A DNA stretch of 64,000 bases from an uncultured Porphyromonadaceae bacterium (GTDB lineage Bacteria > Bacteroidota > Bacteroidia > Bacteroidales > UBA12481). Positions 228 through 32,353 of the stretch are shown here, one piece after another. The notes beneath the pieces were generated by a model. It searched no databases and had not been told where the DNA came from. It saw only the letters and a program-made list of their open reading frames with translations. Location: contig CAYHCO010000018.1 of NCBI GenBank assembly GCA_964355105.1, positions 5,323 to 69,322 of the forward strand. The letters run 5' to 3'. How positions within the stretch are numbered: the first letter of the stretch is position 1; each line of letters opens with the position of its first letter. The translations under genes were made by a program, and so were the position numbers.

Positions 228-238
228 ACGTAATATCG

Positions 239-1972: not shown

Positions 1973-2171
1973 CTGAATGGACACCGACAGAAAACCAATC
2001 CTCGCCGGGCTAATTGACCACTTTCTGCCGAACCAGTTGATCAGTGGCCTCCGGAGTCATCTGACCGCCTGGATCATGGCAACCATCAGGCTTACAAATA
2101 CATATAAATGATGGATGAATCAACTCGGCTGGGACTGTTCAACATGTCCGTTTTATCCAATTCCTTGCAAT
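1973..2171 (+). repeat. R repeat, copy A (~200 bp, structured)
   Basis: Aligns over its full length, at roughly 85% identity by eye, to 5499-5700. It shares the nested inverted segments AGTTGAT/ATCAACT and CCATCA/TGATGG. Confidence 0.7.
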
Positions 2172-2261
2172 ATTTAACGTCAAGTAACTCTGAACACTCA
2201 TTGGTATAAAGTTAAAATGTGTGTTTCTCCTAACAAAGCAATGTCTTAGCCAATAAGCCTC

Positions 2262-2885
2262 TCACTTGGTCTTTACGCACCGGATTGAATATCCCCAAAC
2301 CTTCCACTCTTCATAAGTATGTAGAATATCATCACCCGAGGATAAATATCGGGAACAACCCTTATTTATTGGGGTTGCCGTGGATGAAGTCCAGAAATAG
2401 GCAAAATCCCTAAGTCCCATGAATTGTGTTCTGCCATTGGGATCCAGACTTTTACAACCGGAAGCACGTGCGCTGAATCCGCTTTCTCCCCTCACTACGG
2501 CATCCGGGCCATTCCAATGAGTATCCCCAAGTTCTTTCAGTTTTTCTCCTGCCTGATCATCCAAAAAAACTGCCAGCACCTTCCACTCCTGATCCGATGG
2601 CAGATGCCAGCCGGCCGGACAAACCTTCTGGGCAACAGACCATTCATACAATCTGCCATATGTCTTGCAATGGGTCGAATCCAGATTGTAGCAAAAGGAT
2701 CCCTTGGGTACCTCGAAATTCAGATTTTGTGCCATCCATGTTTGCGACCCAATCCGTATCCAGCGGTAGGTCTGATGATCTCGAAGATCTTCGAATGAAC
2801 CGGATGGTTCAATATTGACATCCTGTGCCTTTAACCACATCGGACCTAACAATAAGGTTGCCAGTATTAATATGCAAGTCTTCAT
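2262..2885 (-). CDS. FISUMP (Fibrobacter succinogenes major paralogous) domain protein, secreted
   Basis: 207 aa with a signal peptide. Motifs TWMAQNLN, YGRLYEW and CPAGWHLPSDQEW are typical of the family. Confidence 0.8.
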   Translation of the reverse strand: MKTCILILATLLLGPMWLKAQDVNIEPSGSFEDLRDHQTYRWIRIGSQTWMAQNLNFEVPKGSFCYNLDSTHCKTYGRLYEWSVAQKVCPAGWHLPSDQEWKVLAVFLDDQAGEKLKELGDTHWNGPDAVVRGESGFSARASGCKSLDPNGRTQFMGLRDFAYFWTSSTATPINKGCSRYLSSGDDILHTYEEWKVWGYSIRCVKTK

Positions 2886-2906
2886 CTTGTCGAAAATTGT
2901 TATGAA

Positions 2907-4172: not shown

Positions 4173-4181
4173 GGCATAAAA

Positions 4182-5348
4182 TCAATTTCCTTTTGGAGTA
4201 ACCAGCATGATAACCGGATTGTCATTAACACTGCTTTTTTCCAACATCCGGATAAAGTCCAGCTGCCGGTCGGGATATTTCAATTCATTTTTTGTGTTTG
4301 GCTTCCAGTATTGCTTTAACATCACCCGATCGAAAAGCATATACAGTTTCCCGTCGGATGTGGTGCCAATGGGCCAGAAATCAGGTCCGCCATCAAAATC
4401 ATTTACAATTCTTGTCCTTTCAGGCAAAGTGACTGACCTGCGTGTATCCTTATTGTACAGATGCTGCCTGGTACGCCCTTGGTAGCTGGTTTCAAGATAG
4501 ATGTACTGATCCGATTCAAATATCCGCATAGGCATCCTGTATTTATCGATCAGTTTTCGATAACCCGGAGTGATAGGGCTGATGGGTAGGACTTTTGGGA
4601 GACGGTGTCTCCCCAGGTCGAGATAATATCTGGGTGTAACCTTAAAATCATCGCTGATCCTGTATACCGTGTCGCACAATCCTTCCCAGACGGTTGCACT
4701 ATCCCGGTATACATACCGTTGGGTATTCTGGACACTAAGATTATCAATATGATCCCATGTATCCTGATTAACTTTGAGCAGATTACAGACGGTAGTGCCA
4801 TTAAGGTCATTGATCACCACTCGATAGCCATTTGAGCGGGCAACCATCCGGGATGAATGGAGGTTTAAAACATTGTCGCTGCCAAATGGAGATGCATATA
4901 AACCGGATAGCACCGACTGCTCCCTGATCAGGTCCCCGTTTAGATTGAATTGCATCATTTTTCCCAGGCGGTCAAAAATGAAGAATGTTTCCCCGGTGGA
5001 ATCAAAATCAAAACCGGCTATCTCGGTATACTTGCCAGGTTCCTTTCCTTTGCCTGAGATTGAGTTCAGAAATCTTCCCTGCCTGTCAAATCGGAGAAAA
5101 GCTTTATCGGCAACGACTATATTATCTGAATTAGCGGCAATATGATGCCCGGGTCCACTGATCCTGCATTGATCGGTGGTTTCCAGAAAAATATATTCAA
5201 CCTCCTGTGCTATGTCTTTCAGGAGAACCGGCTTTTCTCTTTTCAACCCTTTGCCAACTTTTATTGTTTCAGGTTGTTGAGCGGATACGATAACAGGAAA
5301 TACAGAGAACATCCCGATCGTAATGAGCTGAATTAGAATTGTTTTCAT
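4182..5348 (-). CDS. 6-bladed beta-propeller protein (BF3164-like), secreted
   Basis: 388 aa with a signal peptide and a GKGKEPGKY motif. Paralogue of 531-1706. Confidence 0.75.
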   Translation of the reverse strand: MKTILIQLITIGMFSVFPVIVSAQQPETIKVGKGLKREKPVLLKDIAQEVEYIFLETTDQCRISGPGHHIAANSDNIVVADKAFLRFDRQGRFLNSISGKGKEPGKYTEIAGFDFDSTGETFFIFDRLGKMMQFNLNGDLIREQSVLSGLYASPFGSDNVLNLHSSRMVARSNGYRVVINDLNGTTVCNLLKVNQDTWDHIDNLSVQNTQRYVYRDSATVWEGLCDTVYRISDDFKVTPRYYLDLGRHRLPKVLPISPITPGYRKLIDKYRMPMRIFESDQYIYLETSYQGRTRQHLYNKDTRRSVTLPERTRIVNDFDGGPDFWPIGTTSDGKLYMLFDRVMLKQYWKPNTKNELKYPDRQLDFIRMLEKSSVNDNPVIMLVTPKGN

Positions 5349-5498: not shown

Positions 5499-5700
5499 CT
5501 AAGTGGACCTGGCGACAGAAAAACCAAACCTCGCCGGGCTATTTGACCGCCTTCCGACGAACCAGTTGATCAGTGGTCGCCGGAGTCATCGGACCAGTTG
5601 GATCATGGCAGCCATCAGGCTTACAACTACAAATGGATGATGGTTTGATCAACTCGGTAGGGACTGGTCAACATGTCCGTTTTTTCCACCTCCAAGCAAT
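5499..5700 (+). repeat. R repeat, copy B (~200 bp, structured)
   Basis: Full-length match to copy A. Its right ~12 nt (cctccaagcaat) coincide with the first nt of the 820-bp duplication. Confidence 0.7.
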
Positions 5701-5729
5701 GAAAGAGAGAGACCAATTATCTGTGAATC

Positions 5730-5963
5730 CTATCCTTTTATTTTACCGCTCGCCTTCCGGACCTTCTTGTCCGGGGTTTCAGTACCGGGGTCCTCACCAG
5801 CAACCTCCGGTAACCTTTCCAGGTACGGCAGCCCCGCCTCATACAGGTCCCGGGCCGTCCCGACCGGTAGATTGGCGCCGGCAAAATCGACTATACCGAA
5901 CCGGGAAGTTTTAACCCTTCCCGGTTCGAGGCCGATCAGGCGGTAGTGCTCCTGCCAGCCCAT
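5730..5963 (-). CDS. hypothetical 77-aa protein (diverged duplicate of 8611-8844)
   Basis: Intact ORF that differs from the 8611-8844 product at roughly one residue in five. Its ATG overlaps the TAA of the upstream pseudogene (TAATG). Confidence 0.5.
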   Translation of the reverse strand: MGWQEHYRLIGLEPGRVKTSRFGIVDFAGANLPVGTARDLYEAGLPYLERLPEVAGEDPGTETPDKKVRKASGKIKG

Positions 5964-6508
5964 TACGGAATTATCGCAGCCGAGAGCGATATGCTCCCAG
6001 GGTATTCATACAGGCTGTGAGTCCGGTAGGTGAAGGTCATACCCAGACCCCGGCGACCATCGGTCGTGGATCCGGTTCCGGAGCCTTCCCCGGCAGAAAA
6101 CTTGGCCGAACGCAGCTCCCATCCGAGCAGGTATTACTGGTTCTGGTTGTCCTCGGCGATAAAGATCAGGTCTTAGTTCTTGTTGGCGTTCATAAACCCG
6201 AGCAGTTTCTTATTTAGGCCCGGGGCAAACACTTTCAGGGTAAGTTCATACCCTTTCCCACCCTCTTCGCCGATGGGGCTAATATCCAGCCGGGCGGCAT
6301 CCTCGGTGGTGTACAGCTCGTACATCCGTTTGCCGGCTTTCATGGTGATGTCCCCGGTGAGTGCACCGGCGGCATCGAGAGTGGCCGGCGTAGCAGGCTG
6401 AGTTGGCCAGGTTGCCACATCGTTCCAGAGACCGAAGTAGATTTTCTGGCCCAGTCCGCCCAGGTTCCTGCCGTCACTCAAAAGTTTTCCTATATCTGCA
6501 AAATCCAT
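5963..6508 (-). pseudogene. pseudogene of the 181-aa island structural protein (two in-frame TAA codons)
   Basis: Same length and frame as 8844-9389. The N-terminal 111 aa are nearly identical. GAG->TAA and AAA->TAA changes interrupt the frame (...NANKN* and ...NQNQ*). Confidence 0.8.
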
Positions 6509-6612
6509 TCAGCTCTCAGCCTTACAACTATCAAGGGATGATGGTTTTATTAACTCGGCAGCGAGAGGCCAATTCCCTTTGGCGAGGATTGGACAACCTG
6601 TCCGTTTATTCT
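6509..6612 (+). repeat. R repeat, copy C (3' ~100 nt only, with an inserted hairpin)
   Basis: Matches the right half of R (cttacaac...gatgatgg...aactcgg...tgtccgttt). It carries an extra GCCAA-ttccct-TTGGC hairpin (6568-6583) and starts exactly where the 820-bp duplicate ends. Confidence 0.55.
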
Positions 6613-6913: not shown

Positions 6914-8410
6914 TTATAACTTGTCTCCTTCGTTCTGCATCATAATAATCTGTTTCTCCAAGGTTTCAATTTCCGAGGGGCGGGCAGCATCTTTGTTAAT
7001 TATTTTGCCATTTTCATCAATCAACAAATACCAGGGAATTGCAATTATCCCATTTTCATTGAATATCCTAATCAAGTCATCCTTGAACTCTTGGCTAGCC
7101 CTAATGTGGTGGCCGTCGAGTTTGTAAAATTTGATCATTTCTTTCCATTGCTCTTCCTTGTCCTGTTTGTCAATGGAAATATAGAGGACCTCAAATCCTT
7201 TTGATTTCAAGAGAGTATCCAATGAATCCTTGTATTTAAATTCCGCTTTGCAAGGCCCACACCAAGTAGCCCACACATCGACGTAAACTTTTTTACCCTT
7301 AAACTTTGCTATACACTCTTCAAAAGTTGAAATATCATCGGCATTATCGATGAATTTCACCTGGTTACTGAAACTTGTTTTCGCTAGTTTTTGGTATTCG
7401 GCAACCGGATTGACCAATGGAATCAAGTAAGGAATTGCCATGCTTTGAGGATACTTGACATTAAATCTTTCGAAAATCGCTATCAATTCCTTTTCAAAAT
7501 TTTTCTGCAAGCACCTTTCATATATTAAAGAAGCAGCGAAAGTTTCAGCCATTTTCTTAGAGAATAACTTTTCAGATAATGCAATCGCCTCCGTGTATTG
7601 CAACCCTTTCTTTAAGCTGCTCTTTAATACCTTAAGATCACTTGTATCACCAAGATATTGTTGGTACTCTACATAATATTTTGCGTATTCAAACCATCTG
7701 GGGGATAGAAGATTTTTGGGGTCAACTGGAGGGTTTTTTTCGAAGATTTCCTTCCATTGTTTTTTTAATTCTGCCGGATAGATTGCAGGGTTAAAAACAT
7801 CTCCCCTATAGAGTTTTATAAGGGGAAAAGTTGAAAGCAGAGTGGAGAAATAACAGTTACGATCAATCAAAACTTCGTTAAAAAAACTCTCCGATATCGA
7901 ACCTTTTTCAAGTAATTCCTGGAATTTTTTTATTTGCTCATCCTTTTGCAATCTAACCTTTTCGGAGTAAAGAGAAAAATTCTCAGCCTCACCAATCCTT
8001 CCAAATTCCATTTGAACCAAATACGGTGAGGGTAGTTCGTTATATAGTTTTTGTCCAGCTTCATTCGGCCCTAAAATATTAAACAATGTTTTTCCATCCT
8101 TAAGTTCAAACGAAACCTGAAATGATTCACCTGGCTCGGCAATGATAAATCCATCAGTGAAGGAGGCATAGATTGTAATAACAGTAGGTTGTTCAATTTG
8201 AATTTGTAAAAGAAAAGTCCCATCTGCATTAATGACAATTGAATCACGGAATCCAGGGAATGGGAATCCGTTTATCGGATTAACATACTGTAATCGCGTT
8301 GGGACAAATCCAACTACCTTACCTTTGATCGTTACGGTATTATTGTCAGTACCATAAGCAGTAATCCTTCCGATGATTAGAAGAAAAAGAAGCAGTGATT
8401 TGATCTTCAT
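6914..8410 (-). CDS. TlpA/ResA-like thiol-disulfide oxidoreductase with long N-terminal domain, secreted
   Basis: 498 aa with a signal peptide and a C-terminal thioredoxin fold carrying WATWCGPC. Confidence 0.8.
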   Translation of the reverse strand: MKIKSLLLFLLIIGRITAYGTDNNTVTIKGKVVGFVPTRLQYVNPINGFPFPGFRDSIVINADGTFLLQIQIEQPTVITIYASFTDGFIIAEPGESFQVSFELKDGKTLFNILGPNEAGQKLYNELPSPYLVQMEFGRIGEAENFSLYSEKVRLQKDEQIKKFQELLEKGSISESFFNEVLIDRNCYFSTLLSTFPLIKLYRGDVFNPAIYPAELKKQWKEIFEKNPPVDPKNLLSPRWFEYAKYYVEYQQYLGDTSDLKVLKSSLKKGLQYTEAIALSEKLFSKKMAETFAASLIYERCLQKNFEKELIAIFERFNVKYPQSMAIPYLIPLVNPVAEYQKLAKTSFSNQVKFIDNADDISTFEECIAKFKGKKVYVDVWATWCGPCKAEFKYKDSLDTLLKSKGFEVLYISIDKQDKEEQWKEMIKFYKLDGHHIRASQEFKDDLIRIFNENGIIAIPWYLLIDENGKIINKDAARPSEIETLEKQIIMMQNEGDKL

Positions 8411-8610
8411 AGTTGGCGGTTGAGGTGAAATAATTGAAATCTCATAAAGTTAGTGAATTGTTAAACAGGTGGAGCCTTCCGGAAAAAACTGTGTTTACCT
8501 GTTTTCCCAGATCAGTCAGAAACACCCACCACAACAAGTAAGAAAGGCCCCCCACCTTCCGGCAGGGAGCCTCCAAGCAATGAAAGAGAAAGACCAATTA
8601 CCTGAGAATC

Positions 8611-8844
8611 CTATCCTTTTATTTTACCGCTTACCTTCCGAACCGGCATGGCAGGGGTTTCAATCACCGGTTCCTTATTGGAAGCCTCCGGTACCCTTTC
8701 CAGGTAGGGCAAACCCGCCTCATACAAGTCCCGGACCGTCCCGACTGGTAGATTGGGGTCGGCAAAATCGACCACACCGAACCGGGAAGTTTTAACCCTT
8801 CCCGGTTCGATGCCGATCAGGCGGTAGTGCTCCAGCCAGCCCAT
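8611..8844 (-). CDS. hypothetical 77-aa protein (last gene of island operon)
   Basis: ORF translationally coupled (TAATG) to the upstream 181-aa gene. A paralogous copy lies at 5730-5963. Confidence 0.6.
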   Translation of the reverse strand: MGWLEHYRLIGIEPGRVKTSRFGVVDFADPNLPVGTVRDLYEAGLPYLERVPEASNKEPVIETPAMPVRKVSGKIKG

Positions 8845-9389
8845 TATGGAATCACCGCAGCTGAGAGCGGTATGCTTCCGGGGTATTCATACAGGCTGTG
8901 AGTCCGGTAGGTGAAGGTCATACCCAGACCCCGGCGACCATCGGTCGTGGATCCGGTTCCAGAGCCCTCCCCAGCTGAGAACTTGGCCGAACGCAGCTCG
9001 CATCCGAGCAGGTATTTCTGGTTCTGGTTGTCCTCGGCGATAAAGATCAGGTCCTCGTTCTTGGTGGCGTTCATAAACCCGAGCAGCTTCTTGTTTAGGC
9101 CCGGGGCAAACACTTTCAGGGTGAGTTCATACCCTTTCCCACCCTCTTCGCCGATGGGGCTGATATCCAGACGGGCGGCATCCTCGGTGGTGTACAGCTC
9201 GTACATTCGTTTGCCGGCTTTCATGGTGATATCCCCGGTGAGTGCACCGGCGGCATCGAGAGTGGCCGGCGTAGCAGGCTGAGTCGGCCAGGTGGCTACA
9301 TCGTTCCAGAGACCGAAGTAGATTTTCTGGCCCAGTCCGCCCAGGTTCCTGCCGTCACTCAAAAGTTTTCCTATATCTGCAAAATCCAT
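8844..9389 (-). CDS. phage structural-like protein, 181 aa (paralogue of 11605-12078)
   Basis: Lies immediately downstream of the capsid gene. Shares NLGG(I/L), E(E/S)GG..YE.TL and D(Q/N)N..Y.L(I/L)G motifs with the 157-aa ORF. Confidence 0.7.
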   Translation of the reverse strand: MDFADIGKLLSDGRNLGGLGQKIYFGLWNDVATWPTQPATPATLDAAGALTGDITMKAGKRMYELYTTEDAARLDISPIGEEGGKGYELTLKVFAPGLNKKLLGFMNATKNEDLIFIAEDNQNQKYLLGCELRSAKFSAGEGSGTGSTTDGRRGLGMTFTYRTHSLYEYPGSIPLSAAVIP

Positions 9390-9422
9390 TTTTCCTGTAT
9401 TTTAAAGGTTAATGAACCCTGA

Positions 9423-10382
9423 TTACCCGCCAGGGGCAACAGTGTGTTGCAAGTTGGTCCAGACGGCTCCGTTCATGCCAAAACCGAGGCCTTCCCACCA
9501 GTCGCAGAGGAACGAGACCTCACGCTTGCTCTCCTCGATGGAGAATTTGGTTTTGTTGGCGCTCTTTTTGGTAATGTGCAGGAGGTTGTCCTTCGGTGTG
9601 GCAAAGATTACGTTGGTGCCGTTCAGGCAAGGAAGTTCAACCACGCGCTGGCTGGTAAAGTCGATGGATTCATCGACATCCTTGTCGGAGGTGCGGAAGT
9701 AATGCCCGCTGTCACGCTTGTCCCGGAGGTAATGTTTCCGCCAGGTCTGGGACATGAAGACCGACATTGGGATCCCCTGGTAAATTTGGTCGATCCCGTC
9801 GACGAATGCTTCCACCTGGTCATAGATGGAATCCTTGTCCAGGGCGCCGATATTGACCGGGTTGACGGTTTCATTGTCCACACCATGCTGAAGCTGAAAG
9901 ACAAGTCCGTTCATCCCAGAGCCCGTAACACCGGAGGTGCCAGCGGTCGGTTCAGCATACACACCCTTGCCATATTCAAAGAGCTCCATGTCCTGGTTGA
10001 TCTGCGGGATGTAACCGCGTTCAATCAGGAACTTGGCCAGCGGCCAGTCCTTGCGGGTGACGTTATCGGCTGCCAGGAACCCCAGCCAGGTAGCTTCCAC
10101 GTCGTCCGGGGTGAGATCCTCATCAACTTTGAAGTGGAATAGCCGGATCTCGTTCGGGGTGATGGCTGCAGCATTCCTCGGGGTCCAGCCTTTCTGGAAC
10201 GGCTGCACAATCCTCTGCAGGGAGAGCTTGGCCAGTTTAAAAACGGTATCGTCGGTTTTGATCGGCATGCACACGCCCGGGGTGACAAGACCCTGGGTCA
10301 GCATGGTTTTCACACGGGCCTGGTTCTGGCCCGAGTTCTCGTAATAAGCGCCAAAGGCGCTGATGATTTCATGAATATCCAT
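9423..10382 (-). CDS. putative phage major capsid protein
   Basis: 319-aa ORF directly downstream of the prohead protease/scaffold gene. Its length and pattern are reminiscent of P2-family capsid proteins. The fold was not verified. Confidence 0.65.
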   Translation of the reverse strand: MDIHEIISAFGAYYENSGQNQARVKTMLTQGLVTPGVCMPIKTDDTVFKLAKLSLQRIVQPFQKGWTPRNAAAITPNEIRLFHFKVDEDLTPDDVEATWLGFLAADNVTRKDWPLAKFLIERGYIPQINQDMELFEYGKGVYAEPTAGTSGVTGSGMNGLVFQLQHGVDNETVNPVNIGALDKDSIYDQVEAFVDGIDQIYQGIPMSVFMSQTWRKHYLRDKRDSGHYFRTSDKDVDESIDFTSQRVVELPCLNGTNVIFATPKDNLLHITKKSANKTKFSIEESKREVSFLCDWWEGLGFGMNGAVWTNLQHTVAPGG

Positions 10383-10409
10383 ACGGTTGGTTTGTTTGGT
10401 GGTTAGCGG

Positions 10410-11498
10410 TTAATAGCGATCTTCCTGCATGTGTGGCAGGGAGTTCAAAAGTTCCCAGTCAACCCCGTCCGGAGATGGGGTTTTGTCGCTCGCGGTTTGA
10501 ACGCCGGTAGGTGCAACGGCCGGTTTGGCGGCTAGAAGCATCCGGATGGCCGATACTTTCCCTTCAATGGTTTCTTCGGCGGCCACTTTGGGATCCAGAG
10601 CATTCAGGGCGGTAATTGCCGATTGGCGGTCCCCTATGGCCTGGTCCCGGTCAAGGGCAGCCTGGCGTGAGGCTTCAATTTCCTCGTTGAGAGCGGTTAG
10701 CTGCTCCTCATTCAGGTAGGTGCCCTCGGGGGTAAACTCAAGCGTTGGCACTCCCAGCAGAGAGTGCAGTGCGGTCAGGTTTTTCATATTGAGTATTTGG
10801 TTTACGGTGGTTTTAATAACCGGATAAATCTGGGTCAGAATCGTCTGTGTAGGCGGTTCTTCGCTTGTCAGGCTGACTATCGGTGAAGGTTGGCCGGCCC
10901 TGAGCGGTATTGGCAGGTTGGCGCAGTTGAGCATCGTAACAAGCTTTCGGTTCATGAGCGGGCTTTCCCCCAAAGGGGTCTCAAGAATCTCCTCAATGAA
11001 TCCCCAGGCCAGTGCTTCGTCTGCCGTCAGCCAGGTTTCCTGCTTCATCAGATCCAGAATCTCGGGGGTGGATTTACCGGATTTACGGGCATACATTTTT
11101 GCCAGTACGAGGGTGATCTTCTCAAGTTCACTTTTTTCCTTTTCCAGGGAAAGAATCAGCGCATCCAGATCATCCTCGTTCATGTTACCCCAGGTATCCA
11201 CCCATTGAAGGGCTTTGTGAATGAGGTAAAAGGAATTTGAGTGCATCTGGATCCGTCGGGCTCCTAGCGTTATGAGCGTGGCCGAACTGGCATTAAATGC
11301 CGTGAGGACGACGGTGACATTTCCGTGCTCCACAAACTGGTTATGAATGGCAATGGCGTGATCCACGTCACCCCCAAGGGAAGAGACCCGAATGGTCACG
11401 GGATCCTTGCCGCTGGAGGCGAGAAAATTCCGGATGAAGGATTTTGAGTACCCCCACCCTCCTATAAAGCCATCAATGTCCAATACGTGCTGATCCAT
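10410..11498 (-). CDS. ClpP/S14-family prohead maturation protease fused to a scaffold-like C-terminal region
   Basis: 362 aa. The N-terminal half has ClpP-like motifs (VSSLGGDVDHAIAIHN, FNASSATLITLG, YLIHKA). The C-terminal ~150 aa are Ala/Glu/Leu-rich and coiled-coil-like. Confidence 0.8.
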   Translation of the reverse strand: MDQHVLDIDGFIGGWGYSKSFIRNFLASSGKDPVTIRVSSLGGDVDHAIAIHNQFVEHGNVTVVLTAFNASSATLITLGARRIQMHSNSFYLIHKALQWVDTWGNMNEDDLDALILSLEKEKSELEKITLVLAKMYARKSGKSTPEILDLMKQETWLTADEALAWGFIEEILETPLGESPLMNRKLVTMLNCANLPIPLRAGQPSPIVSLTSEEPPTQTILTQIYPVIKTTVNQILNMKNLTALHSLLGVPTLEFTPEGTYLNEEQLTALNEEIEASRQAALDRDQAIGDRQSAITALNALDPKVAAEETIEGKVSAIRMLLAAKPAVAPTGVQTASDKTPSPDGVDWELLNSLPHMQEDRY

Positions 11499-11604
11499 TT
11501 TGTCCTCCCTGGAATACTACCCAAGCTTAATGGCACCAAATTACAGGCGCCGTGGGCCCCCAAAAAGGACAAAATCCCCGGAAACACAGGGATTGCCAGT
11601 TGGA

Positions 11605-12078
11605 TCAGAAGGGATTGGACATAAATATCGAAGGGTACGGAGAAGTCCCGGTAAATTCCAGACGGATGTGGTTCAGGTCGGAAATCTCAGCTCCCGTGTT
11701 TCTTGCAATACCCACCCTTAACGGATAGGCCTTGCTTCCAATCAAACGATAGAGCCCGTTCTGATCCAGGGTGAGAAGGCTCCAGCGCCCGGACTGCAAG
11801 TCCTCGAGGTATGCCTTGAGCGCCGGGGAATCCCTGGCAATGCTCAGGGATAGGGTTGACTCATAATAGGTTCCACCTGACTCTGTCTTACTCGTCTCAG
11901 AAAATCTTAGTGACTGGAAGATCGGAAGGATCTCCAGGCACTCCAGGGTAAACTCATCGGGTAAAAAAAAGCTATTGGGCTCGGCCGGTTGCCGGGTGAT
12001 GTCCGCCAGTGAGGATGGTATAGCCCATACTTTGGCTATCCCCCCAAGATTGTTGGTGCTTTTGGGTGTTACGTTCAT
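11605..12078 (-). CDS. phage structural-like protein, 157 aa (paralogue of 8844-9389)
   Basis: Shares motifs with the 181-aa protein (NNLGGIAKVW, ESGGTYYESTLSL, DQNGLYRLIG, RLEFTG). Confidence 0.6.
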   Translation of the reverse strand: MNVTPKSTNNLGGIAKVWAIPSSLADITRQPAEPNSFFLPDEFTLECLEILPIFQSLRFSETSKTESGGTYYESTLSLSIARDSPALKAYLEDLQSGRWSLLTLDQNGLYRLIGSKAYPLRVGIARNTGAEISDLNHIRLEFTGTSPYPSIFMSNPF

Positions 12079-12628
12079 ACTCTTTTAGGGTCAAATTCCC
12101 AACTGTCCCAATTTCGGACAGCTGGGTCAAAAATATTTTGGTCAGGTTTTCGGAAATGGTGTTCTTGAAGTTGAACCGATGGACCGCTGCATGCCGCATA
12201 AAGTCCTTCCGGATGGATTCATGGGGCCAGGTATCTTCCGGGATATCGAAGTCGAGGGTGAACCGGTCGATGGCCGTTTCCAGGTTCCCGTAAAAGGTGA
12301 AGTTGATGGCCACAATCACGTGCATCATGTGTTTAAAGGAGCGCTCCACCTCTTTGTTGAATACGATGGCCCCGATCCGGGAGAGGTCAAAGCCAACCCT
12401 CAGAAAGTCATCCTCGGAAAGCAGGATCGAAACGGATTGGGAATAGATCTGTGCACTGAGTCTGCGCGCCGGGTACTTGTCTCTCCTCTGGTTATGAAGG
12501 AGAAGCTTCAGTAGCGGCAAAAACGGGTTGTCCCCCTGGTAGAGGTTCACCGGGTTCCCGAAACTCTGAACCAGGTAATGCCTGACATAAGGCTTACAGG
12601 GAATTTGTAATGAAAAATCTGATTTCAT
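11972..12628 (-). CDS. hypothetical protein, 218 aa
   Basis: Long ORF in the operon with no recognised family. Its 3' end overlaps the next gene by 107 nt. Confidence 0.5.
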   Translation of the reverse strand: MKSDFSLQIPCKPYVRHYLVQSFGNPVNLYQGDNPFLPLLKLLLHNQRRDKYPARRLSAQIYSQSVSILLSEDDFLRVGFDLSRIGAIVFNKEVERSFKHMMHVIVAINFTFYGNLETAIDRFTLDFDIPEDTWPHESIRKDFMRHAAVHRFNFKNTISENLTKIFLTQLSEIGTVGNLTLKEYERNTQKHQQSWGDSQSMGYTILTGGHHPATGRAQ

Positions 12629-12695
12629 GCGGCTTGAGGAATGGTGGTGTAAGGTGACATCGTATGGCTTTTTGATAGGAAATCTGTTCGGTCAT

Positions 12696-12914
12696 CTATT
12701 TCCGGAGTTCTTCAAGCAAGCTGGAAAGGGAGTACCGGTCAGAATGGTCCTGTCCATACAATTTGCACACTTCACTGTTCTTACCCCAGGTGTATGCCGT
12801 CCGGATCATCGATTGGACTTCTTTGTTTTGAAGCAGCTTGCGCCTCTTAAGACTTTGGCTCAGCAGTTCTGTGGGGTTGAAGGTCAGGATCCTGGTTACG
12901 AAATTTAGGTTCAT
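12696..12914 (-). CDS. hypothetical small protein, 72 aa
   Basis: ORF co-oriented with the island operon. No family recognised. Confidence 0.4.
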   Translation of the reverse strand: MNLNFVTRILTFNPTELLSQSLKRRKLLQNKEVQSMIRTAYTWGKNSEVCKLYGQDHSDRYSLSSLLEELRK

Positions 12915-13028
12915 AAAGTTCCCAGTTTATTGATTAATGTGTTAGTCAGTAGGCGGATAGCCTTTTGCTAAAAGAAATGATTGCAGCCAGATGGCGATCA
13001 CGGGTGACTGCCCGGACCTGAAAAAGCC

Positions 13029-13262
13029 TCATGCTACTTTAAATGAGAATTCGTCCCTGTCAAAAACCATAACACTGCCGTCCTCAAGCTCTATGATAGC
13101 TTTAAGGGGGTCCTGGCTATCCGGGTCGTAAATCCATTCATGAAACGCTCCAAGGTCTTTCTCCACGAGGGGTGACCCATCATCATGGGTGGTACAGTAT
13201 CTACACTCCACGATCCGGTAGCCCATTCGTTTCATCTTCTTCGTCCATTGTTTTGTTGTCAT
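13029..13262 (-). CDS. hypothetical small protein, 77 aa
   Basis: ORF co-oriented with the island operon. Contains a CRYC pair. No family recognised. Confidence 0.4.
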   Translation of the reverse strand: MTTKQWTKKMKRMGYRIVECRYCTTHDDGSPLVEKDLGAFHEWIYDPDSQDPLKAIIELEDGSVMVFDRDEFSFKVA

Positions 13263-13521
13263 ACCAGTTTCTTCTAAGGTGGTTTCTTATTGTTGTTTTG
13301 GGGTTCCCGTTAAAAGGCTGTTGTATTACGAGGATCCTGTAATCCGAGGTAAAATACAGATCACGGAGCCATTCCCCGTCCATGAGTTCCTTGACGGCTG
13401 CGATAAACCGTTCCGGTTCCTTGAGGGTATCAACCGGGTAGCGGCCCGGCCTTAGGGCTCTCACCTCTACAAATACTCGGTCCAGGTAATCCATCAGAAA
13501 AAAATATATGGCTGCTTCCAC
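13201..13521 (-). CDS. hypothetical protein, 106 aa
   Basis: ORF co-oriented with the island operon, first gene after the ori region. Overlaps the next ORF by 62 nt. Confidence 0.4.
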   Translation of the reverse strand: MEAAIYFFLMDYLDRVFVEVRALRPGRYPVDTLKEPERFIAAVKELMDGEWLRDLYFTSDYRILVIQQPFNGNPKTTIRNHLRRNWYDNKTMDEEDETNGLPDRGV

Positions 13522-13545
13522 AGGTGCTATCTTTCAGAATTCTTT

Positions 13546-13731
13546 GGAACAGTCGGAACAATGATTGTAACTTATTATTATATAGTTATTTATTTTAAAA
13601 AAGTCTGTTCCAAAGGTGTTCCAGGCTGTTCCCATCTGTTCCAAAGTGTTCCGTATCGTTCCCAGTTGTTCCGGAGAATAACTTCCGGAATGATTTATTA
13701 TCCATGGTGTTCCGTCTGTTCCGTCTGTTCC
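13546..13731. other. putative replication origin (iterons flanking AT-rich segments)
   Basis: Two inverted GGAACA sites (13546, 13555) precede an AT-rich 13561-13603. Seven direct (T)GTTCC follow at 13607, 13618, 13628, 13638, 13648, 13658 and 13668 (10-11 bp phasing). An AT-rich spacer with palindrome ttccggaa is followed by three more GTTCC at 13709, 13718 and 13727. The region lies immediately 3' of the primase/helicase gene. Confidence 0.65.
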
Positions 13732-13780
13732 GGGCGTAATTTCTTCTGGATGGGTTCATAAAATTTTTCAGTTATTAGGG

Positions 13781-16700
13781 TTAAAAGGGCAATTCGCCAG
13801 TAACCGATTGAGAATCTTTCTTTTTAGGCTCATCTTGTACCTTGGTAATCGATGTTTTTTCACTTTGGTCTTCTGTATGCAGGCTTACCTCGAGTTTGTC
13901 GTAATCGAAACAGTAAGCCCATTGAGGTTTGGTCTGATAAACCCCTTCCTGACCCGGTGTCGGATCAATAAACCGGAACCGGGTTCGCTTTTTGCCATAG
14001 TAACGCTTGTCATTTCTAAGGTAATAATCAATGGAATCGGTCGGCAAAACTTTGTCTCCCGCGGATTTGCCATGTTTTCGATAGAGAAGGTAGATGCGGG
14101 ACATCTGGATCAACAGGACATTGACCGGAAACTCGAACTCCGTTTTCCGCACATCGGTCTCAATGGTCCTCTGGCATTCGATCTTATAATCAATTCCTTG
14201 CTGAATAAGACCGTCCGAAGCCAGGAAGTTGACCATGTTCCAGAAGTTTGCTACTTCGCTTGATCGCTTGGTCTCAACATTTTGTAGCTGTATCTGAGAG
14301 GCCGCCTGACCAATCAAGTCCTCATAACTGAAAGCCACCTTGAGGTTCTTTCGGATGGCATGAAATGAGGCCAGCAAGATCAGCCAGTTGCGGAAAATAC
14401 GGTCCTCTATCACCACATCTTCGAGGATCTTGTTCAGCTCAACGGCAACCTGGTCATAACTGGTGGCAAAGTTGACGATGAAGTGGCTTCTCAGTCCCAG
14501 GATTTCGTTGGTGATATGGGTATTACCGAGTTGCTCAATTTGCTTTAGTTCATTGAACCGGGCCTTGGCGGCCTCGTCAAATTCAGCGGTGGTAAAGGTC
14601 AGGTAGACAAGACGGGAGAACAGGGCGATATCTGCCGTTGGCATTTCCTGCCCTGATAGGATTACCCCGCAATCGACGGCCGTGGTTTCCTTCTTCTTGT
14701 CTTTATCCATGTTCATCCGGGTCCTGCCGGTACCATCCCATAGGCCTTTCAGAAACTCAATTTTCTCCGGCTCGATGTTGTTCTTGTACTCGTCGATATG
14801 GACACAGGCGTTGGCCACGGTAGCCACATGGTCCGCCAGTGCGGCTTTAGAAGTGTTGTTGATATTGGGCCCCTTCCCTTGCCTGCCAAAGAAACTCATG
14901 AGGGAAACGGCCAGCTCCGTTTTGCCGGCTCCCTTAGGCCCAAAGAGGTTCAGGATCGGAAAAAAATGAAAACGGCCGACAATAACGTCCCTAAACAGAC
15001 TGGCAATGAAAAAACAAAGCGCAATGGATGCATTGGGCCCGAAAACGCCAATGAGTTTTTCGGAATAAGAATTTAGTGTGATGGTATTGGTATCCCGGTG
15101 GATGAACTGACGTTCATTAATGAAGAGCCCGAGTTCATTGGCATAGGTTCGCGAGAAGGCCGGCAGGTAAAAGTTGGTATCCTCATGCTTGACGATCCCG
15201 TTTTCATCGACCGAAGTGAATCGGGAATTAAAGATTCCGTTTCCCCAGGCAAAGAACTGGTCTTTTTGCCAGCCCAGTTGCGTGATTTCGAGGCAGGATT
15301 CTGTTTCCTCGTATAGAAACCGCTTCAAGCGGTTCAGCTCGACCTCGGAAGCTTCCCAAAGGAAGTTACCGAGGGATTCAATACGCTCCTTGAAGCGGAC
15401 CAGGGAAACCAGGTCTTTTTGCGGAAGTTCGATCACACGGCTTTTCCCCCGGTGGTTGGTGATGGTGAAAAGGCGCTTGGCGTTGAGGGTGGATTCTATG
15501 TGGAACAGGGGTTTCAGGACAAAATTGCACCCCCTGATAATGCCCTTGGAAGTATCGAAAAAGTAACAGTTATTGTCTTCATAGAATCCATAATTGTCCC
15601 AATCCACAAGACTGACATGGTCAGGTATTTTCTTGAAGTCTTTATCATGAATTTCTTCGGATGCATTGTCCCGGAGGATCTCACGGATTTTATCCTTGAA
15701 AGCTTTCTTGGGTTTGATCAGTCGCCCTACCTGCTCGATGTAAACTTCATGACTTGAGGCACTGAGCTTTGATATCAAGCCTGATATTTCCTCGATGGCT
15801 CTGAGCTTAAAATCCGGTGCATGGGCCCGATCCTGCCATTGGGTTGCCAGATCCACGATATAATCACGAATGTGGGTTTTAACGGTTTCCTTGAACTGCT
15901 GTTCGTCAGTAAAGTAGCTGTCCGGATCCACCTTTTCCCCTTCATCGGACGGAAGACGAATTACGTTGCAATTCATTCCTTCCTCAATGATCAGACGGGC
16001 TGAACGGTCGACGGCCATCTGGCCGGCTTTGTCGGTGTCCCCGATGATCGTGATACTGTTGCAAAGTTTTTTAAGCTCCAGGATCTGCTCCCTGGAAAGG
16101 GCTGTTCCGGATGAAGCAACAGTTTCCAAAATACCAATCTGATGCAGCCGGATAACATCGGCATTCCCTTCTACCAGATAGGCAAACCCTTTATTCTTGA
16201 TCGTATGGCAAGCCCAGTTCAGGCCAAAGAGCGCTTTGCTTTTATAGTACACCGGGGTTTCCGGGGTATTGAGGTATTTTGCTTTGGCCTCAGGATCGAA
16301 GGATCGGCCGGTGAACCCGATGATCCGGCCATATTTGTCATGAATCGGGATCATGAGGCGGTTCCGGAAGAAGTCATAGGCTCGTCCATCCATTTTTTGA
16401 CTCTCTTTGATCAGTCCGGCTTTGAAAAGGAATTCACTTTTCATACCTGCCTTTTTCGCGGCATTGATGAGTCCGTCCCAGGATTCCGGAGCAAAACCTA
16501 TTTCCATACGCTTGAGGATCTCTTCGCTCCAGCGACCCCGGGCATATTCCAGGGCACTGTAGTGTTCCGGCAGGTACAGGCAATCCTTAAAATAGGATCC
16601 GGCAAAGGAGTTAACAATGTACAGGGATTCGATTTGGTTCTGGGCGGCCTTTTGATCAGGTGAAAGGCTCTCTTCCAGGATGTCGATTTTGAACTTTTGG

Positions 16701-16957
16701 GCTAGTTTACGACAGGCATCGATAAAGGATACCTTTTCGACTTCCATAACGAATTTGGTGGCATTCCCGGCCATCCCGCATCCGAAGCATTTGAAGATGT
16801 TCTTGGCCGGGCTGACCGATAAACTTGAGGATTTCTCATGATGAAACGGACAGGGTCCAAGCCAGTTTGCTCCTGATTTTTTCAACTTTACATAGTCCTG
16901 GACCACCTCCAGTACTGGTAATGCCGTGATCTGCTCGATAACATTTTGTGGGATCAT
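13781..16957 (-). CDS. DNA primase / helicase fusion (Zn-finger CHC2 + Toprim + P-loop NTPase), P4-alpha-like
   Basis: 1058 aa. Contains CPFHHEKSSS...CFGCG (zinc finger), VEGNADV...GDTDKAG (Toprim) and Walker A GPKGAGKT in the C-terminal half. Confidence 0.9.
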   Translation of the reverse strand: MIPQNVIEQITALPVLEVVQDYVKLKKSGANWLGPCPFHHEKSSSLSVSPAKNIFKCFGCGMAGNATKFVMEVEKVSFIDACRKLAQKFKIDILEESLSPDQKAAQNQIESLYIVNSFAGSYFKDCLYLPEHYSALEYARGRWSEEILKRMEIGFAPESWDGLINAAKKAGMKSEFLFKAGLIKESQKMDGRAYDFFRNRLMIPIHDKYGRIIGFTGRSFDPEAKAKYLNTPETPVYYKSKALFGLNWACHTIKNKGFAYLVEGNADVIRLHQIGILETVASSGTALSREQILELKKLCNSITIIGDTDKAGQMAVDRSARLIIEEGMNCNVIRLPSDEGEKVDPDSYFTDEQQFKETVKTHIRDYIVDLATQWQDRAHAPDFKLRAIEEISGLISKLSASSHEVYIEQVGRLIKPKKAFKDKIREILRDNASEEIHDKDFKKIPDHVSLVDWDNYGFYEDNNCYFFDTSKGIIRGCNFVLKPLFHIESTLNAKRLFTITNHRGKSRVIELPQKDLVSLVRFKERIESLGNFLWEASEVELNRLKRFLYEETESCLEITQLGWQKDQFFAWGNGIFNSRFTSVDENGIVKHEDTNFYLPAFSRTYANELGLFINERQFIHRDTNTITLNSYSEKLIGVFGPNASIALCFFIASLFRDVIVGRFHFFPILNLFGPKGAGKTELAVSLMSFFGRQGKGPNINNTSKAALADHVATVANACVHIDEYKNNIEPEKIEFLKGLWDGTGRTRMNMDKDKKKETTAVDCGVILSGQEMPTADIALFSRLVYLTFTTAEFDEAAKARFNELKQIEQLGNTHITNEILGLRSHFIVNFATSYDQVAVELNKILEDVVIEDRIFRNWLILLASFHAIRKNLKVAFSYEDLIGQAASQIQLQNVETKRSSEVANFWNMVNFLASDGLIQQGIDYKIECQRTIETDVRKTEFEFPVNVLLIQMSRIYLLYRKHGKSAGDKVLPTDSIDYYLRNDKRYYGKKRTRFRFIDPTPGQEGVYQTKPQWAYCFDYDKLEVSLHTEDQSEKTSITKVQDEPKKKDSQSVTGELPF

Positions 16958-17037
16958 TGAAATCAGGTATTGCGCTGGGAAGGGTATAAAAGCTTGGGGT
17001 TATCCAAGGACATTTTGTGGAGCATGGAGGAATCCTG

Positions 17038-17385
17038 TTAGTTAAAAGAAAACGCTGGCAATGGAAGGAGGACGTTTGTATCCATGGCGATGGCCCTGGC
17101 CATTCGACTTAGAACGGTAAAGTTCAGGATGGTAATTTCGTGCACTGGACTTCTCCGGCCCGGAATTAGTGCGGCGATTTCCTGGGAGTGCTGGATCCAG
17201 AACCGGGCCATCTTTAGGTCAGTATCGTATTGATATGCATCCAGGTATTTCTCCAATTCCCAAAGGCAGGAATTGATGAAACCCGGATCGGCCTTTGACT
17301 GACCCGATGCAATGAGGTATCTACGCTGCCTGATGAGCATCTGAACAAATTCAGCAGCAGCTACGTGAAAAGTGCTATTCATCAT
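17038..17385 (-). CDS. hypothetical protein (~115 aa)
   Basis: The ORF in the track runs 17038-17412. The start is more likely the ATGATG at 17385/17382, next to the stop of the upstream ORF. Confidence 0.4.
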   Translation of the reverse strand: MMNSTFHVAAAEFVQMLIRQRRYLIASGQSKADPGFINSCLWELEKYLDAYQYDTDLKMARFWIQHSQEIAALIPGRRSPVHEITILNFTVLSRMARAIAMDTNVLLPLPAFSFN

Positions 17386-17629
17386 CCGTGCGTTTCTGAA
17401 TATAATTGCCAATGTCTTCGGCTAACTGGGCAGTTGAGTTGTACTCGGTTTCATAGGATTCCCCTTCAATGACGATTGGCATTCGGGAATTGCGGTTTTT
17501 TGCCAGGTGCATCAGGTGGGACAAAAGGGCCCGATGGATTAATTTCAGGGCCCTGGTACTGGATTGCGGATTCACCACTAAGGCCATGGGATCAATAAGA
17601 GTTTGAACGGAGCGTTTGGTTTTGTTCAT
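17375..17629 (-). CDS. hypothetical small protein, 84 aa
   Basis: ORF in the island early operon. Its ATGA overlaps the upstream ORF. Confidence 0.4.
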   Translation of the reverse strand: MNKTKRSVQTLIDPMALVVNPQSSTRALKLIHRALLSHLMHLAKNRNSRMPIVIEGESYETEYNSTAQLAEDIGNYIQKRTDDE

Positions 17630-17934
17630 GATACATTTGAAAGCTTAATGAATTGGATAGCACTTGCATTAGTCATAAACTCTTTGTAAGCAATACCCAG
17701 CTCGATCTGAATGTGGTATAACCGTTCCTCATCCGCAGCATCACAATTATTGAATGCTGCTTCAAGAATTTCTATACGTATTCTTAGAGCTTTGGCTGCT
17801 GTTAGCGCCTCAGGTTTGAATTGGGAAGCTGGCTTGCCCATGATCGGCAAACTCATTAAGAATATTCTCGAACCGTGTAACTGATTGTTTCTTGGCCTGT
17901 AAGGATTCTTCGAAGATGTATACGGCACAATCAA
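17626..17934 (-). CDS. hypothetical small protein (maximal ORF; real start probably internal ATG at 17856 or 17841)
   Basis: ORF in the island early operon. Its 5' part overlaps 17810-18070 in another frame. Confidence 0.35.
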   Translation of the reverse strand: MIVPYTSSKNPYRPRNNQLHGSRIFLMSLPIMGKPASQFKPEALTAAKALRIRIEILEAAFNNCDAADEERLYHIQIELGIAYKEFMTNASAIQFIKLSNVS

Positions 17935-18070
17935 TAATCTGTTGATTGTAACGCTCCCCTTTTAGAACAAAGTCAATGTGTGGGTAAGAGAATCCGGTTT
18001 CTTTGTGTATACGCTTCCTGTAGCCTTTAGGAAGCAATTTTCTAAGTAGCTTTAACTGTGAGTTATTCAT
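17810..18070 (-). CDS. hypothetical small protein, 86 aa, first gene of leftward operon (possible Cro/HTH-like)
   Basis: ORF divergent from the XRE genes. A basic N-terminal segment KGYRKRIHKETGFSYPHIDFVLKG suggests DNA binding. Not verified. Confidence 0.45.
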   Translation of the reverse strand: MNNSQLKLLRKLLPKGYRKRIHKETGFSYPHIDFVLKGERYNQQIIDCAVYIFEESLQAKKQSVTRFENILNEFADHGQASFPIQT

Positions 18071-18225
18071 TGAATAAACAATAATAATTTGGATATTGTA
18101 TAAAAAATGTATAAACTTCGTAGTGTAATAATCAATATCTAAGATTCATTATAGATGAACAAAGTAACTACTTATTACAACAACTTATAGCTTTTGGGCG
18201 GTTTTTAACTAAATATACTCTTGAG
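18071..18225. promoter_or_regulatory. divergent promoter/operator region of the island
   Basis: AT-rich 155 bp between divergent genes. Direct repeat TGTATAAA at 18097 and 18108 (11-bp spacing). Imperfect inverted repeat ATAATCAAT/ATTCATTAT (18128-18136/18144-18152). TAgcTTTTG, resembling the Bacteroidetes -7 box, lies about 30 nt upstream of the 18226 ATG. Confidence 0.45.
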
Positions 18226-18585
18226 ATGATTGATTCTGAGCGATTAAATCTTTTCCTGCACTCGAAGAAGGTTTCAACAAAGGATTTGGCCAAACTATTG
18301 GGGGTTAGCCATGCTGCCATTTCGATGATTAGAACCGGGAAGAATAATTTGAGTTCCCAAATGTTGGTTAAGCTAATAGAGCTTTATCCGGAACTATGCC
18401 CGAAGTGGTTGATAACGGGTGTCGGGGACATGGTATGTGACTTACATAAGGATCATTGGAAGACACAAAGCGATGGAGATCAATTTGCAGAAATCCAAAG
18501 GCTTAAGGAGCAACTGGCAGGAAAGGAAGCTCTATTAAAAGCGAAGGAGGAGATTATTGAACTTCTTAGGGAGAAGAAGCAATGA
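18226..18585 (+). CDS. XRE/phage-CI-like HTH regulator with coiled-coil C-terminus
   Basis: 119 aa. The HTH LAKLLGVSHAAISMIRTGKNN plus the PKWLITGVGDM motif is shared with the chromosomal 31144-31572 product. Confidence 0.8.
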   Translation: MIDSERLNLFLHSKKVSTKDLAKLLGVSHAAISMIRTGKNNLSSQMLVKLIELYPELCPKWLITGVGDMVCDLHKDHWKTQSDGDQFAEIQRLKEQLAGKEALLKAKEEIIELLREKKQ

Positions 18586-18914
18586 TTAGGAATGTGGGAG
18601 AAATAGTCAAGCAACGGCGCTTGCAGGTTGGAATGAGCAAGGTAACTCTGGCCAAGAAACTTGGCTGCAGTCCTCAGAATGTGGATTCATTGGAGAAGAG
18701 AAAATCTATCGATTTTGAACTGGCCCAGAGAATCTCCCTACTCCTGGATTTTGACTTGTTCTCTTATTATCGGATGCCGGATCCCGAACAGGAAACCATA
18801 CTATCCGACCTACAACGAACCATTGCACAACTCACAGAGAAATATGTACAGGTCCTGGAGAAAAACAATGAATTGCATGAACGGATAGCTGAACTCACTC
18901 ACAAACAAACATAA
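18582..18914 (+). CDS. XRE-family HTH regulator with coiled-coil C-terminus
   Basis: 110 aa. HTH LAKKLGCSPQNVDSLEKRKS. 4-nt ATGA overlap with the preceding XRE gene. Confidence 0.75.
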   Translation: MIRNVGEIVKQRRLQVGMSKVTLAKKLGCSPQNVDSLEKRKSIDFELAQRISLLLDFDLFSYYRMPDPEQETILSDLQRTIAQLTEKYVQVLEKNNELHERIAELTHKQT

Positions 18915-32345: not shown

Positions 32346-32353
32346 TGTACCTG

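Follow-up and report, generated by a model that had tools for sequence, protein, structure and literature searches.

The window examined here, a 64,000-nucleotide stretch of contig CAYHCO010000018.1 (assembly GCA_964355105.1) from an uncultured Porphyromonadaceae bacterium, contains about two-thirds of an integrated phage-derived element of approximately 24.8 kb, namely its right-hand side. The element reaches from the stop codon of a regulatory gene at position 18914 to the end of homology past a RadC gene, at about window position -5893, and some 15 kb of it constitutes the core. Among its genes are those for capsid, prohead protease and terminase, and no portal gene was found in it or in its closest relatives, which is the feature that concerns us most. 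An initial annotation of the window had described an island of about 10 kb, a size that has to be replaced by the value given above. Positions to the left of the window are taken from the source contig, which was fetched as locus L006 (window position = 11707 - L006 position), and the window and this extension together form a composite contig of 73 kb. Relatives were drawn from a survey of approximately 160 loci in GTDB genomes and IMG/VR (a search space of 2.9 million viral contigs), and are labelled with L-numbers.

Gene content and organization

There are two regulatory genes at the right-hand end of the element, both on the plus strand and both encoding XRE-family helix-turn-helix (HTH) proteins. 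The first (18226..18585, 119 amino acids) matches Pfam HTH_3 at 4.1e-7 and gives a weak match to Phage_CI_repr. The second (18582..18914, 110 amino acids) overlaps the first by 4 bases and matches HTH_3 at 2.2e-7. Regulator 1 is divergent from the main operon, and its homologues are found at the same end of related elements. An AT-rich divergent control region, read directly from the sequence, occupies positions 18071..18225, where a search for operators returned only weak inverted repeats and no operators were defined. The operon that these genes face is tightly packed on the minus strand from 18070 to 8611. It opens with four small early open reading frames (ORFs) of 86, 102, 84 and 124 amino acids (17038..18070), which lack Pfam matches and whose order is kept in clade relatives L011, L013-L020, L026 and L030.

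The largest gene of the operon (13781..16957, minus strand) encodes a DnaG-type primase of 1058 amino acids with a C-terminal Walker-A NTPase. Pfam identifies DNAG_N (8.5e-34), the CHC2 zinc ribbon Zn_ribbon_DnaG (1.3e-31) and Toprim_2 (5.7e-15), while PHROG 6444 is matched at 1.6e-98 and PHROG 1139 on residues 490-915. The Walker A motif of the C-terminal part reads GPKGAGKT. Over its full length, the protein is 28% identical to gp23, the primase of Cellulophaga phage Ingeline. Directly 3' of the primase gene lies an iteron array (13546..13735), wherein 12 copies of GGAAC(A) fall within positions 13546-13732 and only about 0.5 would be expected by chance. Ten copies share one orientation, most of them spaced about 10 bp apart, and are followed by an AT-rich spacer and two inverted copies. 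By its pattern, this array makes a convincing candidate for an iteron-type replication origin. Three further small ORFs of 106, 77 and 72 amino acids (12696..13521, minus strand) separate the candidate origin from the head module; they match nothing in Pfam or PHROG, and those of 106 and 72 amino acids are conserved in the clade.

All genes of the head module are on the minus strand. It begins with p218 (11972..12628), which has no Pfam or PHROG match and precedes p157 and the protease gene in most of the surveyed loci, complete phages included. The ClpP/S49-type prohead protease (10410..11498, 362 amino acids) matches Pfam CLP_protease at 7.6e-16 over residues 27-174 and the PHROG head maturation protease at 2.5e-34. 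Its C-terminal extension of about 185 amino acids, which we infer to be scaffold-like, matches nothing in either database.

The major capsid protein (9423..10382, 319 amino acids) lacks Pfam and PHROG matches and is assigned an HK97 fold from tblastn and structure prediction. A tblastn search links it to the protein annotated as major capsid protein in 'Microcystis' phage Mea-Yong924-1 (6e-9, 94% coverage), as well as to proteins of Cellulophaga and Flavobacterium phages. The AlphaFold model has a moderate pLDDT of 62.8 and retrieves 142 Foldseek matches in the PDB at E<=1e-3; the 50 of these that were listed are almost all HK97-fold capsids or encapsulins.

The initial annotation had predicted the facing HTH genes with their operon, the fused zinc-finger/Toprim primase, the adjacent iterons and a capsid-like protein of 319 amino acids, and each of these predictions holds at the coordinates and with the domains, motif, copy number and fold given above. 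It had also proposed a prohead protease with a scaffold-like tail, of which the protease is established by Pfam and PHROG and the tail may be scaffold-like.

The two proteins described there as paralogous and structural-like are p157 (11605..12078) and p181 (8844..9389), neither of which has an informative Pfam or PHROG match. In jackhmmer searches each draws about 250 ORFs, far more than the other core proteins, although the two match lists were not compared. Both genes and this breadth of matches agree with the proposal, but the paralogy itself finds no support in BLASTP, which gave no significant link between them, and p157 is at most a possible remote paralogue of p181. The AlphaFold model of p181, a conserved virion-module protein, has a pLDDT of 82. 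Structurally, the model comes closest to an uncharacterised protein of Polaribacter phage Leef_1 (TM 0.77), and it otherwise resembles only uncharacterised phage proteins. A concealed tail or neck protein was considered, and tail-tube and neck folds in the PDB are matched at a non-significant E>=0.03. The first half of the late operon closes with p77 (8611..8844), a small ORF that is kept after p181 in relatives and has no informative Pfam or PHROG match. Sequence searches of the PDB with the terminase and with alignments of the capsid protein and p181 returned nothing useful.

A packaging module beyond the window edge

The late operon is interrupted after p77 by 8.4 kb of cargo (from p77 at 8611 to p264 at 251) and then resumes. 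This gap is one of two variable hotspots in these elements: hotspot 1 lies between p77 and p264, and hotspot 2 between TerL and RadC. The packaging half begins with p264, whose 5' part occupies positions 1..251 on the minus strand and runs off the left edge of the window. Its identity is supported by a 288-amino acid protein of L004, which matches window positions 45-197 by tblastn, corresponding to the first 50 codons of p264. On L006 the order of genes is p264, p199, p92, p194, TerL, Abi_2 and RadC, all of them intact with Abi_2 left aside.

The large terminase TerL (window -3681..-1984, 565 amino acids) continues the operon. It is 30% identical to annotated large terminases (1e-56, 97% of length) and carries a Walker A motif, SRGTGKS, and a Walker B-like motif, ILDEA. 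As for the capsid protein, no Pfam or PHROG match tied TerL to known families. The product of p199 is a PLD-like nuclease, and p264, p92 and p194 gave no informative match in either database. Because of its position, with its gene overlapping the TerL start codon, p194 is probably the small terminase. RadC ends at window -5869 and is followed on the opposite strand by host-like genes that belong to the same families as those of the right-hand host flank.

These genes change the outline that had been drawn from the window. The left boundary that was originally placed at 8570 is merely the edge of an internal duplication, and the operon carries on beyond the cargo. A second p181-p77 copy, with p181 as a pseudogene, is found at 5689..6509 on the minus strand and has 92.4% DNA identity to 8570-9390; mapping of relatives' genes onto the window placed this copy at 5766-6508. 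The description of the island as lacking a terminase likewise falls, since a large terminase and a likely small terminase are encoded beyond the window edge. We also considered the cargo at 531-8410 to be host DNA that marks the end of the island, and this is ruled out because the operon resumes beyond it and relatives hold other cargo at that position.

A non-coding stretch of 39 bp upstream of RadC (L006 16894-16932, window -5187..-5225) is about 90% identical in the distant elements L099 and L106. The region of about 230 bp around it, preceding RadC, also recurs downstream in L155 (17409-17631). The 39-bp stretch could be a regulatory, pac or recombination site.

Kinship with complete phages and the missing portal

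Judged by its sequence, the element descends from Duneviridae-type temperate siphophages of Bacteroidota. These include Ingeline (NC_062749), Polaribacter phage Leef, Flavobacterium phages 1H/6H/2A/23T and Mea-Yong924-1, with which it shares the primase, p218, p157, protease, capsid protein, p181, p264, p199, p194 and TerL in syntenic arrangement. The order p218, p157, protease, capsid and p181, then p264, p199, p92, p194 and TerL, is the same in Mea-Yong924-1, in Ingeline and throughout the surveyed loci. Bacteroidales metagenomes are rich in relatives of the capsid protein (484 matches), and there the capsid gene is followed by p181, p77, p264-288, p196-199, p92-98, p194-196 and a gene for a 565-amino acid protein. 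Bacteroidales members of the phage lineage also have RadC past TerL, as does the element. Complete phages with the same head-packaging module have capsid proteins 23-65% identical to that of the element, with some IMG/VR contigs at 50-65%.

The two differ in what lies past TerL. Past its TerL gene, Ingeline encodes a small ORF, a 447-amino acid portal, an adaptor and a tape-measure protein, and then tail proteins and an integrase. The Duneviridae-type phages measure 37-47 kb and carry portal, adaptor, tape-measure, tail fibre and integrase genes in this position, whereas the clade of the window element ends after RadC or a few small genes. A hidden Markov model (HMM) of the lineage's portal finds a protein of 438-456 amino acids 0.5-4.8 kb past TerL in nearly all loci from Flavobacteriia genomes. 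It is also positive in Bacteroidales loci L023, L031, L050, L053, L058, L065, L073, L081 and L083 and in the 40-44-kb IMG/VR contigs L090, L111 and L113. On the 73-kb composite contig, this model and jackhmmer searches for the adaptor gave no match to portal, adaptor or tape-measure proteins. Pfam and PHROG indicated no tail genes there, and the largest unassigned core ORF is no longer than 264 amino acids.

The absence of a portal, a tail module and a tyrosine or serine recombinase had been predicted from the window, and it extends to the composite contig. The predicted absence of lysis genes agrees with the Pfam and PHROG matches, none of which suggests one, although no search dedicated to lysis genes was made. 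The annotation had further reasoned that the same genes, if seen inside complete 35-45-kb prophages, would point to a deletion remnant. This expectation is borne out in part, because the head-packaging module does occur in 37-45-kb phages (Ingeline, Mea-Yong924-1 and IMG/VR contigs). Each module is homologous to a known phage lineage, and it is the combination of capsid and terminase without portal that is unusual.

One possibility is that the element is a complete prophage whose portal and tail genes lie farther off, past a large cargo insertion or off the contig. There is some space for them, as hotspot 2 reaches 4.8 kb in complete phages such as L031 and the source contig ends 7.3 kb past TerL. 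Moreover, cargo related to the type IX secretion system (T9SS) occurs inside the hotspots of relatives, so the Por_Secre_tail gene past RadC could itself be cargo. However, homology with the nearest relative ends 24 bp past the RadC stop codon, and that relative has no portal within 10 kb past TerL and a defined end in two contexts. The genes past RadC are also on the opposite strand and of host-flank families, and the 73 kb searched yielded none of the three proteins. We therefore regard a distant portal as very improbable.

Several other sequences are related to this module. The 8799-bp GenBank entry MT836778.1, an unannotated human faecal 'Bacteriophage sp.', ends in a terminase 52% identical to that of the element, and many human-gut IMG/VR prophages of 30-50 kb have terminases about 54% identical to it. 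A 4.18-Mb Bacteroidales genome (OY781965.2) holds two copies of the module, L004/L024 and L031, whose head-packaging proteins are 85-92% identical. L031 has a portal 4.8 kb past TerL, and the other copy has a T9SS gene of about 1800 amino acids past TerL and an internal integrase of 319 amino acids. The pair was considered as a satellite beside its helper and dropped as evidence, given the 85-92% identity and the extent of L004, which covers just 5.2 kb past TerL and there contains one giant T9SS gene.

A clade of portal-less relatives

Close relatives can be recognized by terminase identity to the element: L155-L160 at 94%, L153 and L154 at 86%, L161 at 77%, and L164 and L022 at 71%. No portal is found past TerL in this clade within the sequence examined, which extends for 10 kb in L155, L157, L161 and L164, 8.9 kb in L159, 5.7 kb in L153 and 5.1 kb in L022. 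The layout past TerL consists of a variable region and RadC, followed in some members by a few small genes. L155 and L157 are the same element from two samples and contexts. They are 91% identical until 7 bp past the last small gene and then diverge fully, one continuing with an HTH gene and its counterpart with a RES-domain gene. This sharp divergence gives a defined right end without portal or tail.

The opposite, HTH end also adjoins different and unrelated host genes in different members, including GH38, GH99-like, UDP-glucose dehydrogenase, redoxin and Fic genes. L020 and L030 carry a complete tyrosine integrase of the Bacteroidetes type (Arm-DNA-bind_5/SAM_5/Phage_integrase) at this end, and most copies have none. 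The family is present in more than 70 loci across GTDB species-representative genomes, often with several per genome bin. Several bins hold three to six copies, and the co-resident capsid proteins are only 60-88% identical, so these are not recent duplications.

All of the approximately 20 core genes are intact in the window copy. Compared with the portal-less relatives L010 and L155 (dS 0.5-1.6), the ratio of nonsynonymous to synonymous substitution rates (dN/dS) is 0.033 for the capsid gene, 0.04-0.05 for TerL, 0.03 for p194, 0.05 for p181, 0.07-0.09 for p199, 0.06 for RadC and 0.11 for the protease gene (against L010). These low values reflect strong purifying selection.

Such selection bears on the possibility that the element is a defective prophage remnant, as the initial annotation had cautioned. 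By this account, a single deletion removed the portal-tail-lysis-integrase end of a Duneviridae-like prophage, and the remaining island has since been immobile, vertically inherited and slowly decaying while filling with host-like genes. Intact core ORFs and dN/dS values of 0.03-0.15 at dS of about 0.9 fit poorly with a remnant in decay, unless the portal-tail segment was lost long after these relatives had diverged, and the architecture shared by the clade argues against so late a loss. The same reduced layout is also seen in many diverged copies in varied contexts, with several per genome bin, a common sharp end in L155 and L157, and an integrase still present in some members. The remnant account is the main rival and remains a live concern, and we judge it rather unlikely.

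The preferred reading, to which we give about an even chance of being correct, is that the lineage is a helper-dependent, capsid- and terminase-encoding, portal-less phage satellite derived from Duneviridae-like phages. The window copy is a cargo-laden member that may no longer be mobile. The original proposal of a satellite that borrows both packaging and tail functions from a helper thus survives in modified form: the terminase-less version is abandoned in favour of one with capsid and terminase and no portal. It survives because the close clade consistently lacks the portal-tail block and is under purifying selection.

A number of observations weigh against the satellite reading, and many of them are what a remnant would be expected to exhibit. 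In complete phages, the genes that are missing here lie side by side at one end of the prophage. Neither Pfam nor PHROG identifies an integrase or recombinase in the window copy or on the composite contig, and no attachment-site-like direct repeat joins the two ends of the element (no shared 11-mer or longer). Six small genes that come after RadC in the nearest relative are missing here, two in-frame stop codons interrupt the second copy of p181, and the cargo region around it is a patchwork of repeats. Two relatives have decayed: p199-TerL follows directly on a truncated primase in L163, and L164 has been rearranged. Among the IMG/VR contigs there is no member of the clade, the best capsid match being 65% and the best terminase match 61% identical, and no circular or terminally repeated contig was found among the loci searched. 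No helper phage was identified. Finally, we know of no described satellite family that has its own capsid and terminase and yet lacks a portal of its own, so the mechanism would be without precedent.

Within L163 (7610-11698), two HTH genes and a 328-amino acid primase comprising only the zinc ribbon lead directly to p199, p92, p194 and TerL, the head module having been deleted. Contigs of about 10.5 kb from Logan were considered as complete elements and ruled out, as they are fragments that end in or beside genes and lack terminal repeats.

A second compact lineage, distant from the first, is represented by L118-L141 (IMG/VR contigs of 4.6-31.6 kb), whose terminases are 26-29% identical to that of the window element. 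Its members have a 700-amino acid primase, the p218-to-TerL block, RadC, and either a type IIG restriction-modification enzyme or ArdC. No portal is found in the 3.5-5.7 kb past TerL, where sister phages have one 0.6 kb past TerL. This suggests that a strategy of capsid and terminase without portal is recurrent.

Cargo hotspots

The window's own cargo in hotspot 1 lies on the minus strand and includes two parts besides the second p181-p77 copy. A TlpA/thioredoxin-like protein of 498 amino acids (6914..8410; Pfam Redoxin, 3.2e-15) is encoded between the two p181-p77 copies. A cassette of four genes (531..5348), identified by Pfam, encodes a DUF5128 beta-propeller, a CarbopepD_reg protein, a Fib_succ_major lipoprotein and a second DUF5128 protein. 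Three of these four genes are present at the same position in L021, and this is therefore a recurrent cassette and not random host DNA.

Across loci, the p77-p264 gap ranges from 0 to more than 9 kb. It contains a Gabija-like OLD-ATPase and UvrD helicase in L010, a type IIG restriction-modification enzyme in L011, an insertion sequence element and T9SS-secreted proteases in L155, and GmrSD, a PDDEXK nuclease and a Stealth protein in L153, with glycosyltransferases and methylases in other loci. Complete phages of the lineage use this hotspot too, and it is therefore not in itself a satellite feature. Hotspot 2 holds Abi_2 in the window element, a Schlafen-like ATPase and MmeI-type restriction-modification in L155, Vsr, Bse634I and a C5-methylase in L153, and a DUF1016 nuclease in L161.

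This cargo raises the question of whether these are domesticated islands for defence, in which capsid and terminase are kept to interfere with infecting relatives, perhaps by capsid poisoning or packaging hijack, and the element itself is not transferred. Such a role would explain why capsid and terminase genes are under purifying selection although portal and tail are absent, and it would account for the Abi_2, restriction-modification, Gabija-like and Schlafen-like genes in both hotspots and the rarity of integrases. However, an immobile defence island would have no need of the full primase, iteron origin and XRE switch that are retained, and the copies occupy many genomic contexts, two of them with integrases. 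We consider this explanation improbable.

Two non-coding segments of the cargo are repeated. Positions 1985-2171 match 5513-5700 (188 bp, 84.6%), and 5609-5671 match 6510-6572 (63 bp, 79%); these repeats may be cassette boundaries. Duplication of p181-p77 is also not confined to the window, as L084 and L085 each consist of a lone capsid C-terminal fragment, p181 and p77 beside host-like genes, and L028 has two partial elements fused head to tail. The recurrence of this duplication suggests cassette exchange by homologous recombination at that point.

Flanking genes

The element is flanked by two converging genes for Por_Secre_tail (T9SS-sorted) paralogues of about 650 amino acids that are 32% identical, one at L006 17875-19833 (window -8126..-6168) and the other at window 19801-21735. 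Genes for thioredoxin-like and DUF5128 proteins are present in both flanks and in the hotspot, so that the cargo and the surrounding host genes have gene families in common. In the left host flank, an 88-amino acid cysteine-rich secreted peptide (L006 19926-20192) is encoded beside a 182-amino acid protein and a DUF5128 beta-propeller, an arrangement that resembles a small secreted-peptide cluster. The sole tRNA gene in the window, tRNA-Gly(CCC) at 32353-32425 on the minus strand, is far from the element and so is not its integration site. An Rfam scan of window positions 1-22000 gave no match.

Comparison with known satellites

The system that the element would most resemble in its mode of action is that of the capsid-forming PICIs (cf-PICIs). 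These reportedly encode their own portal and head-tail adaptor or connector and steal only tails. Both are small integrated elements with primase-type replication, a capsid protein, a prohead protease and small and large terminases (the small one here by position only), neither shows tail or lysis genes (here by Pfam and PHROG), and in both the modules are akin to those of true phages and reside in a much smaller genome. The differences are substantial. No portal, adaptor or connector was found in the present clade, the gene order starts with the head genes and finishes with the terminase, sequence comparison gives no membership, the hosts are Bacteroidota, and most copies are without integrase. 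Thus, the element lacks the defining portal and connector of cf-PICIs and, in the window copy, also the integrase and attachment sites. The satellite census of de Sousa et al. 2023 (PMC10085698), which models cf-PICIs, makes no mention of Bacteroidota.

With SaPIs and other PICIs and with P4, the element has in common a repressor switch, a primase with an adjacent iteron origin and, on the satellite reading, the use of virion parts from a helper. Classical PICIs and P4 differ in that they are not known to have a capsid or large terminase of their own, remodel helper capsids via CpmAB, Sid or Ccm, and are not known to lack an integrase. Pfam and PHROG detected no homologues of Sid, Psu, Delta, AlpA or Stl among the window proteins, and of the hallmarks of P4-like satellites (Sid, Psu, Delta, alpha, integrase and cos) the sole analogue is the primase with its iteron origin. 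P4-like satellites and PICIs also have hotspots of anti-phage defence systems. A gene transfer agent is not indicated, because portal and tail are lacking and because a primase, an origin and an XRE switch are part of the element itself.

The marine VEIMEs (Eppley et al. 2022, PMC9618062) are small integrative elements, some of them in Flavobacteria, that carry primases, small terminases and defence genes and have been found in virus particles. Major capsid genes are absent from them, and their DNA enters helper capsids of full size in the form of concatemers (PMC9618062). The present element, in contrast, encodes a capsid protein, protease and large terminase.

A possible satellite family in Bacteroidota

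We infer helper dependence, assembly on a foreign portal and packaging by a route such as the following. Perhaps the induction of, or infection by, a related helper siphophage would relieve the XRE switch, and the element would then replicate from its own origin by means of the primase and iterons. Its capsid protein and protease would form shells on a portal supplied by the helper, and its own terminase would package the element DNA. The helper would supply neck and tail, and lysis functions would be borrowed as well.

A broader proposal, which we put forward only tentatively, is that there is a widespread new family of Bacteroidota satellites with its own HK97 shell, protease and terminase, which takes portal, neck and tail from a related Duneviridae-type helper and whose two hotspots shuttle defence and surface cassettes among Bacteroidales. 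Phage satellites are well described in Proteobacteria and Firmicutes. Bacteroidota are a dominant phylum in gut, freshwater and marine systems, and no satellite family was found described for them in the literature searched (satellites in Bacteroidota, Bacteroides and Flavobacteria); the initial annotation likewise knew of none with this gene set.

Even if its members are only remnants, the family is common and worth annotating. If the satellite reading is correct, the shell and motor of a satellite are able to assemble on a portal that is not its own, which would be new both for capsid assembly and for the specificity between satellite and helper. The family would then represent an intermediate grade of piracy, between the capsid-remodelling satellites such as P4 and SaPI and the tail-stealing cf-PICIs. 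Given the cargo of their hotspots, these elements could be a route by which defence and surface-variation genes are carried in Bacteroidales.

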